A stretch of 64,000 nt of DNA from Eledone cirrhosa (taxonomy: Eukaryota). Positions 20,400 through 35,112 of the stretch are shown here, in pieces. A program made the translations under genes and the position numbers. Under the pieces are notes generated by a model. It searched no databases and was not told where the DNA came from. It worked only from the letters and a program-made list of their open reading frames with translations. The stretch spans positions 314,092,001 to 314,156,000 of the forward strand of contig OZ024741.1 in assembly GCA_964016885.1 (NCBI GenBank), given 5' to 3'. Each line of letters starts with the position of its first letter. Within the stretch, counting starts at the first letter, position 1.

Positions 20400-20860
20400 T
20401 ATAAAATTGGCCAAAACTGCTACTATAGTAACAGTCCGGCTGCTGTCTACTTAACAAACGACTCTTCACTGACTGACCTCGATATCACGTGACTGATTCT
20501 TTTGAATTTGCCACCGACGCAGTAGGCAGTGATTTTGTCAATGGCTTGGAATTTAGTCCACGCTTTGCTTTTTCCATCCACTGAATTATTTTTGTATAAG
20601 TTCCCTGTATCGACGTATTGCCTGGAAACTTAGCTGAGAATAGACTTCCCTGATGACGAAAGGCTTCTCCGTACGTTTCTTCGAAAACTATGTTTATTCC
20701 CTTTCAGAAATTAATTAGTTGGAGTGAAATTTTAGTAAGTAAGTTAATTTTATAATTTTCTTATTTTACGTCTCTCATATTATTGTTCTGCATCCCCATG
20801 CATTGAACCACAAGGTTACTAAGACAAAACCTATATATTTTCGAGCATAAGCATGCATCT
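20400..20860 (+). mobile_element. Diverged solo copy of the 556-bp HHR repeat family
   Basis: Shares cacgtgactgattcttt, ctgagaatagact, ttcttattttacgtc and gcattgaacca with the array at 32021-34680. Confidence 0.8.
20644..20725 (+). ncRNA. Type I hammerhead ribozyme
   Basis: ttcc-CTGATGA-cGAAAGG...CCTTTCa-GAAAT-TAATTA-GTT-ggag. Confidence 0.8.
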
Positions 20861-23800
20861 GTGTATATATATATGTATATGTATATATATATGTATATGT
20901 ATATATATATGTATATGTATATATATATATATGTATATGTATATATATATATGTATATGTATATATATATATATATATGTATATGTATATATATATATAT
21001 ATATATATATATATATATATATATATATATATATATATATGTGTGTGTGTGTGTGTATTTATATATATATATTTATATGTATATATATATATATGTTTAT
21101 GTATATATGTATATGTATATGTATATATATGTATATGTTTGTATATATATATATTTATATATGTATATGTATATATATATATATATATGTATATGTATAT
21201 ATATATATATGTATATGTATATATATATATATATATGTATATGTATATATATATATATGTATATATATATATATAAATATATATGTATGTATATATATAT
21301 ATATACATATATATATATATATATATATATTCAGGTTTAAGGTTTACCACTGTATAGATCTGGTCTATTCCGTAGGGTCAATCGTAGTGCAATAATATAG
21401 AGAGTATTCAACGTAAGGCAGTTCAACCGTCTTTGTTTTTGTAGTTGGTGGTGCTATTACGGAGTTAAATCTCCCCCTGGGAACATAAATACTGCAACCT
21501 GAACTATATTGTAATTCTCCTATGTCTTGAACTCTCCATTTACTAGACAACGACTATTGTTTGTTTATTTATATCTTCACATCTTTATTTGCTGTATTAA
21601 TGCCTTTCCACGTACTCTACCTCTATACATCCATGTACTTTTTACTTCCCTTTTTCGGACTTTTACTCGCGTGTACCCTTAGCACACGACACAGGATTGT
21701 CTCCCCCCCCCCCGGAACATAAATACTGCAACCTGAACTATATTGTAATTCTCCTATGTCTTGATTTCTCCATCTCACTCCAACACCACTCTTGTTGGTT
21801 TATTTACATATTTATACCTATATATTGATATGTTTATATATTTATACCTTTGCTGTACCAATGTGCTCTTCCACGTATTCCACTTCTATGTATCCATGTA
21901 TTTCTACTCCTCACATTGGATTCTGTACCCATTAGCATACGACACTAGAATGTCTCCTCCTGAGAACAAAAATAAATATTACACGACTATATCCCGTACT
22001 CTACATCCCACTAGGATAAATTACAGATCTACATAATACAATTAACGTTTCTTCATAAAAGACTCTATTTAACTAAACCCCGCAACCCAAAACCTCATGG
22101 AAGTTATTTGAATGTTTAATCTTCAATTTTCTGTTTGTTCAATTCTCAATCTTCTTACTCTTTAGTTTTATAATGTTATTCTGAATTCTTTCAACTTCAT
22201 CCGATAGAGTTAAGCAATATTTTAGAGTTCCAACTTTCTGTCGGACTGTTGGGTGAGCTTTAGTGGCGGCGCGACCAGCTCCCTGGCGCACGAGCTTACC
22301 TGGAGTGCTTGGAAAAATAAATTTCCCCTTTTTTCGGTAAATGAAAATACTCGGCGTAGCTTAAATCGCCATGGGGCCCGGGGCGCGGCCGGTGTTTTAA
22401 CCGTCACATAGTACCTTTAAATTACAGAACAAATCGGAACTATTAGATATATCAACCTCAAAATGTTAAACTGCTGAACTTTAAATTTTCTAACCTCTTT
22501 AATATTGAATATTGATTATTAATTGTTTAACTTCATCCTATAAGTATAAACATTGTAACACACTGACTCCTAATATATTCACCTCTGCTAAGATGCGGGT
22601 CTCTGTGAACATTTTCTCGCGCCACTCCTGGCCTGACTGGTCTGACATTAATATCGACCTTCCTCTCTCTTTCTATCTTCCTTCTTATAGCCATCAACCA
22701 TTACTTTTCTACTTCTCTAAGCAAAATTTTAAAGTTCCAACTTTCTGTCGGACTGTTGGGTGGGTTTCTGATGGCGGCGCGACCAGCTCCCTGGCGCACG
22801 AGCTTACCTGGAGTGCTTGGAAAAATATATTTCCCCTTCTTTCGGTAAATGAAAATACTCGGCGTAGCTTAATTCGCCATGGCGCCCGGGGTGCGCCCGG
22901 GTTTTAACCGCCACATAGTACCTTTATATTACATAACAAATCGGAACTATTAGATATATCAACCTGAAAATGTTAAACTGTTGAACTTTAAAGATTTTAA
23001 CCTCTTTAATATTGAATATTGATTATACATTTTTTTCCTTCATCCTATAAGTCTAAACATTGTAACACACTGACTCCCAACATATTCACCTCTGCTTTAT
23101 GCGGGTCCCTGTGAACATTTTCTCGCGCCACTCCTGGCCTGACAGTGGTCTGACATTAATGTCGACCTTCCTTCCTCTCTCTTTCTATCTTCATTCTTAT
23201 AGCCATTAACCATTACTTTCCTACTCCTCTAAACAAAATTTTAAAGTTCCAACTTTCTGTCGGACTGTTGGGTGGGTTTTAATGGCGGCGCGACCAGCTC
23301 CCTGGCGCACGAGCTTACCTGGAGTGCTTGGAAAAATAAATTTCCCCTTCTTTCGGTAAATGAAAATACTCGGCGTAGCTTAATTCGGCATGGGGCCCGG
23401 GGCGCGCCCGGTATTTTAACCGCCACATGGTACCTTTAAATTACATAACAAATCGGAACTATTAGATATATCAACCTGAAAATGTTAAACTGTTGAACTT
23501 TAAATTTTCTAACCTCTTTAATATTGAATATTGATTATTAATTTTTTAACTTCATCCTAGAAGTATAAACATTGTAACACAATGACTCCCAACATATTCA
23601 CCTCTGCTAAGATGCGGGTCCCTGTGAAAATTTTCTCGCACCACTCCTGGCCTGACTGTGGTCTGACATTAATATCGACCTTTCTTCCTCTTTCTTTCTA
23701 TCTTCCTTCTTGTAGCCATCAACGCTTACTTTTCTACTTCTCTCGTCTCTTCCTTCTCTTCTCCCATCTTCCTGTCTTTCTCCCGCAGACTTATCTTCCT

Positions 23801-24131
23801 TCCCCCTCTTGCTTGCCTATATCTGACCGATAGTAGTTGCATTTCTTCTTTTAGCTGATATTAACCCTGGTTTCTCTTCTTCTTTCTTCCCCCTCTTCTC
23901 TCTCCTTCCTTTCTTTCTTTCTTTTACCTTGTGTCATGAGATTGACGCTAACTTATGTTCCCATCCCTTTCTGTTTTCGTTTATCTGACCGGTAGTAGCA
24001 TAATATAAACTTTAGCCACGTCACTCGAGGGCGACCGGCTGAGGTTGAAGGAACAGAATAGTGGTCGCCCTCGGGCCCTCGATTTTCAGCCCCATGGATT
24101 TTATCTATTACATTCACGTATTATATTTCGA

Positions 24132-24189
24132 ATACCTGATGATATCACCGGATTCATACGGAACCCGGTCATTGAAATGATCATAGTAT
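24132..24189 (+). ncRNA. Type I hammerhead ribozyme
   Basis: ATAC-CTGATGA-tATcACCGG...CCGGTcATt-GAAAT-GATC-ATA-GTAT; palindromic stem III ATGATCAT. Confidence 0.82.
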
Positions 24190-34054: not shown

Positions 34055-34528
34055 GAAAATTTAAGTAAGAAAAAAATTTTTTTTAAATTTTTTTAAAAAA
34101 ATATTTTCTTATTTTACGTCCTTTATATTATTGTTCTGCATTCTCCTGCATTGAACCACCTAGGTACTATGACATAACCTGTGTATTTGCTGGCATGGGC
34201 GTGCATCTGTGCGCTTATGTTAGTTGATATATTAAATTATCTATATTTATCTCCAAATCACTGATTTGTCGAGCAAACTTGTCAAAACCACTTCTAAAAA
34301 ATTTTTTTTGGGGTGTTAGTAGGCGTCAGTCATCTTACCATCCCATTCCTTCTAACTAGCCTCTGTGTCACGTGATTGATTCTTTAGAATCGGCCATTTG
34401 ACTTGAAGCAGTGAGAATTTCGGTACATAGAATCCAGTCCTCGCAAGCTGTTCGATCTACCGAATTATTATTATTTTTATATAAGCCGCCAGTGTCCGCG
34501 CATTGCCTGGAGACTTAACTGAGAATAG

Positions 34529-34610
34529 ACTCCCTGATGACGCAATGAATTCTCGACAGGTGGATTACGTAACTGTCTTTATCCCATTGCAGAAACTAAT
34601 TAGTTGGAGT
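34529..34610 (+). ncRNA. Type I hammerhead ribozyme (array unit)
   Basis: As 32862-32943, with one substitution in the internal hairpin. Confidence 0.88.
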
Positions 34611-34744
34611 GAAAATTTAAGTAAGAAAAAAATTTTTTTTTAATTTTTTTAAAAAAATATTTTCTTATTTTACGTCCTTTATATATATATATATATATAT
34701 ATATATATATAGAGAGAGAGAGAGAGAGAGAGAGAGAGAGGGAG

Positions 34745-35112
34745 AGAATTTAGTATATCTACCAACGCATGCGTACAGATGTACACTAATGCTAGCAAAT
34801 ACATAAGTTATGTCATAGTACCTAGGTGGTTCAATGCAGGAGGATGCAGAACAATAATATGAAAGACGTAAAATATGAAAATTTTAGAAAAAATAAAAAA
34901 TTAACTTACTTACTAAAATGTTCACTCCAACTAATTAGTTTCTGTAATGGGATAAAGATAGTTACGTAATATAACCATCGAGAATTCATTACGTCATCAG
35001 GGAGTCTATTCTCAGCTAAGTCTCCAGGCAATGCGCGGACACTGGGGACTCATTTTAGTAAGTATGTTAATTTTTAATTTTTTCTAAAATTTTCTTATTT
35101 TACGTCTTTCAT
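34745..35112 (-). mobile_element. Diverged copy of the 556-bp HHR family with a short inverted end
   Basis: Homologous to 32025-32340; 35052-35112 is inverted relative to 34858-34918. Confidence 0.85.
34924..35005 (-). ncRNA. Type I hammerhead ribozyme
   Basis: ACTCC-CTGATGA-cGTAATG..[GATGGTT/AACTATC]..CATTACa-GAAAC-TAATTA-GTT-GGAGT; compensatory changes relative to the array. Confidence 0.87.

Follow-up and report, generated by a model that had tools for sequence, protein, structure and literature searches.

Several hammerhead ribozymes described earlier resemble the element considered here. Animal non-LTR retrozymes (elements lacking long terminal repeats) are described as non-coding, low-(G+C) tandem repeats of 150-450 bp, present in thousands of copies, with one type I hammerhead per unit, a weak palindromic stem III and a proposed mobilisation by Penelope-like elements (PMC7229834; bioRxiv 10.64898/2026.07.22.740005). 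The hammerheads in the pseudo-LTRs of Penelope-like elements have a helix II of 6-8 bp (PMC4209133) and are presented in a review as minimal versions without tertiary contacts (PMC6155905). Pseudoknotted hammerheads, in which base pairing between stems I and II substitutes for a non-canonical contact, make up ca. 40% of the representatives in PMC3088659, where disruption of the pairing is reported to slow cleavage and compensation to restore it. In the autonomous Anolis Poseidon element PAc the hammerhead overlaps the start codon, and two internal reverse-transcription starts, spaced by 30-40 nt, lie downstream of it; the targets are AT-rich (PMC11167929). The stretch of DNA analysed here, called the window, is 64,000 nt long and comes from the 3.0-Gb genome of Eledone cirrhosa (GCA_964016885.1, contig OZ024741.1, positions 314,092,001 to 314,156,000 of the forward strand). 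It contains copies of a type I hammerhead motif whose stem II is long and is predicted to form a pseudoknot with loop I; they are situated in a non-coding tandem repeat which probably spreads as a non-autonomous retroelement of the Penelope type, i.e., a retrozyme.

This family, referred to below as the main family, shares the listed features of the published animal retrozymes, but its monomers are longer (500-579 bp, and 482-487 and 683 bp in the sister families X and Y, respectively), the two halves of the core are separated by 41-62 nt, a Watson-Crick pseudoknot replaces the canonical loop 1-loop 2 contact, and many of the E. cirrhosa copies are truncated or inverted. It differs from the pseudo-LTR hammerheads of PMC4209133 in its two-tiered arm, its conserved tertiary pairing, and the extra A that precedes G12, and in that no element that bears an ORF (open reading frame) is linked to it. 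Unlike in the pseudoknotted hammerheads of PMC3088659, both pairing partners are internal loops, and the family belongs to animal retroelements. As in PAc, there are two preferred 3' ends downstream of the hammerhead and AT-rich targets; the two ends are, however, ca. 110 nt apart. Penelope-derived retrozyme hammerheads, their covariation (2014), and pseudoknotted hammerheads from elsewhere are already published, and covariation in stem II is expected for this class of elements. The new part is the long stem II with its covarying pseudoknot, common to three high-copy families and missed by Rfam. A literature search, which most subscription papers lay beyond, found no description of a 41–62-nt pseudoknotted stem II in animal retroelements. 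Lünse et al. 2017, reportedly concerned, to judge by the title, with dimer-cleaving Penelope variants, may cover related variants.

The core C3 U4 G5 A6 N7 G8 A9 G12 A13 A14 A15 U16 H17, taken from the consensus in PMC3088659, is present in all seven main-family copies of the window; in the family at large position 7 varies (U, C), as the consensus permits. The core pattern gives seven matches in the window and none in 100 shuffles, in agreement with the initial annotation, according to which the core is retained and the motif is not a chance match. Three helices surround the core and the open end lies in helix I; in 33 hand-picked rows 97% of the cells are paired in stem I, 98.5% in stem II, and 92.9% in stem III. 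For the pair 10.1-11.1 beside the core, the main family has a G-C, kept in 153 of 158 aligned copies, which an additional nucleotide on either side (C or A facing A) separates from the core, whereas in family X the G-C directly abuts the core and the cleavage site is GUA; in family Y this pair is G-C in 14 of 20 rows and A·C in six. On folding, stem III does not form a hairpin alone, but reaches -9.0 kcal/mol as a duplex with a second copy, an arrangement known as the double hammerhead from Penelope-type and newt ribozymes (PMC4209133). The whole monomer folds with a z-score of -4.38 and the hammerheads of the array and of the minus-strand copy at 34927-35000 with z-scores of -3.07 and -2.45, respectively, whereas the copy at 20650 folds no better than its shuffles (0.13).

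Two features of the arms deserve separate mention. Further out, stem I may be prolonged by ACUUA-CU and AGUAAGU, 92% of whose cells are paired; this extension is not claimed, since no change occurs on both sides. AGUAAGU itself is kept just past stem I (window ca. 32950-32960) in the main family and equivalently in family X, with no covariation, and could be either the distal closure of stem I or a splice donor; Penelope pseudo-LTRs frequently contain introns. In one subfamily (loci L088-L090 and others) the nested hairpin of stem II is shrunk to 4 bp (CAUG/CAUG) and UUCUC and GAGAA are still kept, which suggests that constraint falls on the pseudoknot strand and that the distal hairpin acts as a spacer.

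The initial annotation had noted that the stem II sequences differ between three diverged copies with pairing preserved: GCAATG/CATTGC in the array, GTAATG/CATTAC at 34924-35005 (hammerhead at 34927-35000), and GAAAGG/CCTTTC at 20644-20725 (hammerhead at 20650-20722). All three are present as quoted. Over 85 nt the array and the minus-strand copy differ at seven positions: two pairs have changed on both sides in a compensatory manner, one has become G·U, and two of the changes fall in loops, none of them breaking a pair; the copy at 20650 adds two further compensatory pairs in stem II. The nested hairpin stems quoted there (GACAGTT/AACTGTC and GATGGTT/AACTATC) are likewise correct, but the copy at 20650 has a distinct hairpin with a UUCG loop, and not a variant of GACAGUU/AACUGUC. 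This copy departs from most of its subfamily at two sites (U at 15.2, and UUCGA for UUCGG), probably owing to decay after insertion. The minus strand of the copy at 34927-35000, the pseudoknot, and the identity of the carrier had been left out of that annotation. By themselves the three copies are weak evidence, since each of them belongs to a genome-wide subfamily.

Genome copies were counted with three non-overlapping sequence patterns of the main family, each accompanied by a backwards-read control, and amount to 10,330 (8,237 + 1,618 + 475; controls 0, 0, and 0); the first U of UAAUUA is absent in only 32 copies. The main pattern has no match in viral contigs and none in metagenome contigs. 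Rfam gives no match within the window at the gathering score, and the three weak matches obtained up to E=10 at 32700-33200 are not to hammerhead families. For the analysis of covariation, 420 profile hits from 181 sources were reduced to 348 near full length, 234 distinct, 189 non-chimeric, and finally 158 copies after the removal of those with large deletions, and aligned with MAFFT without structure. All 14,196 column pairs were scored by a G-test with average-product correction against a null of 150 tree-simulated alignments. The two stem II pairs that the initial annotation had pointed to take the first two places: pair 2 with E=0.01 (A-U 77, G-C 30, C-G 27, U-A 23, and one mismatch) and pair 5 with E=0.45 (G-C 80, U-A 70), followed by pairs of the nested hairpin (E=15 and 57). 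With the ribozyme columns left out of the tree construction, pairs 2 and 5 each switched between Watson-Crick states at least three times. CpG decay as the cause of the pattern at pair 2 is ruled out by double transversions there.

Other comparisons lead in the same direction. In the 33 hand-picked rows 91% of the cells are paired, compared with 35-48% when the partners are slid, and none of 500 shuffles reaches the score. Pairing is kept in eight of the 11 variants common to at least four loci and in six of the 31 rarer ones (Fisher p=0.002), and of the variants in the core one is shared and 11 are rare, as compared with 82 shared and 107 rare ones in the flank upstream (p=0.016); the loci partly overlap, and "shared" may count one array under several locus identifiers. 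The selection on RNA structure that the initial annotation proposed for the source elements is thus supported. On the sequence evidence the motif is a real, constrained hammerhead of a retrozyme-like family; the word "functional", applied earlier to the source elements, holds for the fold and the constraint on the core, cleavage itself being predicted.

Loop I carries GAGAA, which is complementary over 5 bp to UUCUC in the internal loop of stem II, and GAAAA co-occurs with UUUUC. In one clade in which both letters of pair 3 were left free, a hand count of the first 100 of 610 matches gave 66 G-C, 26 A-U, 6 G·U, 1 A·C, and 1 G·G; the pair appears to follow the course from G-C through G·U to A-U expected of RNA. 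The sister families, found by a relaxed motif scan, back the pseudoknot more strongly than does covariation within the main family. Family X (2,178 pattern copies) has AAAGA/UCUUU or AGAAG/CUUCU in loop I and stem II, and family Y (1,103 pattern copies) GAGCG/CGCUC, GAGCA/UGCUC, GAGU/ACUC, or GAGAA/UUCUC; one pair of the family Y pseudoknot reads C-G in 15, U-A in three, A-U in one, and U-G in one of 20 rows. One Y subfamily has a 4-bp pseudoknot, the fifth pair being broken in nine of the 20 rows. Own partners of loop I and stem II pair over a greater length than partners shuffled within the family (as high a score in 0 of 300 shuffles for the main family, 5 of 300 for Y, and 14 of 300 for X), and partners swapped across families pair over 3.2-3.9 bp, as compared with 4.3-5.2 bp for own partners. 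A helix I-II tertiary contact in the form of a 5-bp pairing with compensatory changes is thereby predicted in all three families. Family X is related to the main one by 68% identity over 78 nt downstream of the ribozyme (E=7e-6); the likeness of Y is weak (E of 0.02-0.05 to the main family and 1e-4 to X), and its kinship is probable.

The carrier has a monomer of ca. 556 bp without an ORF, the longest stop-free frame in a dimer being 74 amino acids, and a G+C content of 0.355 over 32001-34000. The range of 500-579 bp given above comes from 60 cut-to-cut monomers. According to bioRxiv 10.64898/2026.07.22.740005, a non-LTR retrozyme comprises two or more successive tandem units that each contain a complete type I hammerhead; four such units lie at 32867-34607, and both the absence of protein coding and a G+C content under 50% accord with this class. 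Because the monomer has no ORF, and hence none for reverse transcriptase (RT) with a GIY-YIG endonuclease, the carrier is not filed as an autonomous Penelope-like element. Its insertions bear the signature of these elements described in PMC8557442 and PMC11167929, i.e., tandem and partial-tandem copies, an inverted 5'-truncated segment, alternative 3' ends, and (TA)n targets. In a survey of insertion ends in 180 loci and the window, 161 of 191 3' ends were found at two sites, 55-85 or 165-210 nt beyond the cut site, and 152 of the 191 enter TA repeats; 140 of 206 5' ends lie at head-to-head inversion junctions. Eight rows with a 5' end at position 0 are artefacts of the reference edge.

The most likely reading is a retrozyme with the following course of events. 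The arrays would be transcribed into multimers, in which the pseudoknot would align stems I and II side by side in lieu of a loop–loop contact of the usual kind, and would provide a docking of the two stems that is missing from minimal Penelope hammerheads. Within a single copy the palindromic stem III is not stable, and two neighbouring copies would therefore join in a double hammerhead that cuts after GUU, yielding monomers of ca. 556 nt that could be ligated to circles. (TA)n would be nicked by the RT/GIY-YIG protein which an autonomous Penelope-like element with TA targets supplies, and reverse transcription would start within the RNA at a distance of 55-85 or 165-210 nt from the cut site on its downstream side; such internal priming would give tandem, 5'-truncated, and inverted insertions. 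New subfamilies would be founded only by source copies with an intact fold, and inserted copies would decay freely.

A number of points weigh against this retrozyme reading. The Hydra-like and Neptune-like ORFs seen in the window and the fetched loci yielded no autonomous partner. Only one stem II pair, among all pairs, reaches E<0.05, and the pseudoknot pairs are absent from the top 40 column pairs; the main-family pseudoknot shows one compensatory event on the tree, and mismatches make up three of the 11 shared pair states, all of them within the pseudoknot. The core variant U4C is common to five loci, and the invariance of the core is partly built in, because most search patterns fixed the core letters. 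Hits mispaired beside the core were discarded by the filter used in PMC3088659, which would exclude the main family. Three further points would also be accounted for if the fold was selected chiefly to serve the partner RT protein as a docking or folding element, with cleavage slow, protein-assisted, or dispensable for transposition: the main family has a C·A or A·A mispair, and not a pair, at the first position of stem II, together with a GUU site; 5' ends do not accumulate at the cut site across the 180 loci and the window; and the Anolis ribozyme is reported in PMC11167929 to cut only in the presence of the protein, its mutants leaving insertion in vitro unaffected, with no reads starting at the cut site among the data presented there. 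The docking explanation is unlikely, as the catalytic letters are constrained (the one shared and 11 rare variants cited above) and persist in families X and Y despite different letters in stems I-III, and family X combines a normal G-C closing pair with a GUA site.

Less probable still is an origin of the repeats by 5' truncation, as pseudo-LTRs detached from an autonomous Penelope-like element, with selection having acted there and not in a self-standing retrozyme lineage. The Penelope-like ends and inversions would suit it, and in three loci (L078, L099, and L115) a Hydra-like endonuclease end lies just upstream of the repeat on the same strand. However, the arrays run from monomer to monomer without an ORF in the 60 monomers mentioned, at the three ORF junctions the elements are dissimilar and the monomer is joined at different points, and locus L135 shows that the junction in L078 is that element's own TA-facing end. 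That the paired changes were made in DNA, by quasi-palindrome correction or arm-to-arm conversion without selection on RNA, is very improbable and largely refuted: the hairpin arms are indeed close together and the elements show template-switch inversions, but G·U exceeds A·C on the ribozyme strand (106 versus 32 cells, which are not independent, and six versus one at pseudoknot pair 3 among the first 100 matches), C(UUCG)G loops occur in several subfamilies, and the unpaired core is conserved too.

As to the partner presumed by the retrozyme reading, the window contains an ORF at 29473-30369 which we take, from its motifs, to be Neptune-like. Neptune-like elements were rejected as the partner, as their 3' ends hold a short hammerhead of their own; short motifs of the minimal type are found at 30812 (+), 52671 (+), and 17635 (+), ca. 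450-480 nt past the end of the Neptune-like endonuclease. Hydra-like ORFs are located at 10402-12261 and 18732-19745, the latter with a DKT motif, and the label of the former rests on its likeness to the latter. The family of 10402-12261 is very abundant and young (150 scored matches of at least 90%, tandem ORF frames of 784-786 amino acids); it was rejected because an 8.5-kb tandem stretch (L211, G000:C1:91474000-91482500) has no CUGANGA on the coding strand, which contrasts with the report of canonical hammerheads as universal in Hydra (PMC8557442). The copies adjacent to ORFs in L078, L099, and L115 were rejected as a link to a partner, being nested insertions, as was a Poseidon-like ORF beside family X in L223, from which a TA run separates it. 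Among the Hydra-like and Neptune-like ORFs of the window and the fetched loci, no autonomous element was found whose pseudo-LTR is homologous to the repeat; three motif strings are absent from the supplement of Craig et al., and its "half-core" Naiad_Ovul consensus bears no likeness by eye or by these strings. Near Hydra-like ORF fragments (L023, L025, L076, L137, L179, and L214) there is another family of hammerheads, in which stem II is an uninterrupted hairpin of 36 nt and the palindrome is UGCGCA.

The main-family and sister-family features of the window are collected in Table 1; the GAAAGG-subfamily copy is ca. 74% identical to the array over 20585-20863. Hammerhead-like motifs with a medium to long stem II (ca. 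23-61 nt between the core halves) also occur in other repeats of the window, at 35273 (-), 36408 (-), 40810 (-), 24136 (+), 27042 (+), 18316 (-), and 19726 (+); those at 35273 and 40810 passed the stem scan and the remaining ones were judged by eye. The motifs at 24136 and 27042 belong to a duplicated unit of ca. 2.9 kb (21469-27149) with internal repeats of 230-250 bp and ca. 510 bp. The microsatellites and retroelement ORFs of the window point to an animal genome. Fragments resembling other non-LTR retrotransposons (endonuclease/RT, labelled by eye) are located at 2082-4312, 41198-41650, and 59326-60568.

Table 1. Hammerhead copies and their parts in the window (pairing, cut sites, and pseudoknot strands are predicted)
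Feature	Position	Strand	Basis
Tandem array of ca. 556-bp non-coding monomers, ca. 3.4 units, four hammerheads, 3' end entering (TA)n	32773..34684	+	sequence layout
Inverted, 5'-truncated segment, head-to-head with the array; one hammerhead (32213-32286); (TA)n end	32014..32774	-	sequence layout
Loop I strand GAGAA, predicted 5' half of pseudoknot, first array copy	32854..32858	+	complementarity, covariation
Stem I 5' strand ACUCC, partner GGAGU at 32939-32943	32862..32866	+	97% of cells paired
Core CUGAUGA and one extra nucleotide (C; A in one subfamily)	32867..32874	+	
Long stem II, first array copy	32875..32923	+	folding, covariation
Stem II outer helix, 6 bp	32875-32880 with 32918-32923	+	
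UUCUC within the 7x7 internal loop of stem II, predicted 3' half of pseudoknot	32883-32887	+	
Stem II nested hairpin, 7 bp	32888-32910	+	
One additional A, core GAAA, stem III palindrome (ACUAAUUAGU), predicted cut after GUU at 32938, 3' strand of stem I	32924..32943	+	
Second array hammerhead, predicted cut after 33494	33423..33496	+	
Third array hammerhead, predicted cut after 34049	33978..34051	+	
Fourth array hammerhead, predicted cut after 34605	34534..34607	+	
Separate truncated copy of GUAAUG subfamily, ca. 85% identity to array; hammerhead 34927-35000	34743..35053	-	
Separate single copy of GAAAGG subfamily, partly decayed, 5' limit approximate; hammerhead 20650-20722	20400..20863	+	
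Sister family X hammerhead, inverted partner of the copy at 43585	43073..43146	-	
Sister family X hammerhead; loop I AGAAG opposite stem II CUUCU	43585..43654	+	
Sister family Y hammerhead in tandem element ca. 4823-5751; loop I GAGC opposite stem II GUUC	5246..5313	-	

It may be, although we put this forward tentatively and with rather more doubt than the retrozyme reading itself, that the three families, with at least 13,600 copies, represent an unrecognised class of hammerheads in animal Penelope-derived elements. In this class a two-tier stem II of 41-62 nt, pseudoknotted with loop I, would be docked for fast cleavage and gated by dimer formation; unseen by Rfam and by short-spacer descriptors, it would perhaps be hidden in Penelope lineages reported as hammerhead-free. 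Whether hammerheads are needed for the mobility of Penelope-type elements or are carried passively is treated as an open question in PMC8557442 and PMC11167929. The many subfamilies in E. cirrhosa supply natural compensatory variants in both the helices and the tertiary contact, and the need is therefore directly testable. The core search in PMC8557442 is described as allowing spacers of 7-17 nt between the core halves; published searches with such short spacers would miss the long-arm form, and ribozyme counts in large invertebrate genomes may therefore be too low. For E. cirrhosa itself, a large unannotated class of non-coding repeats in the genome is now named.

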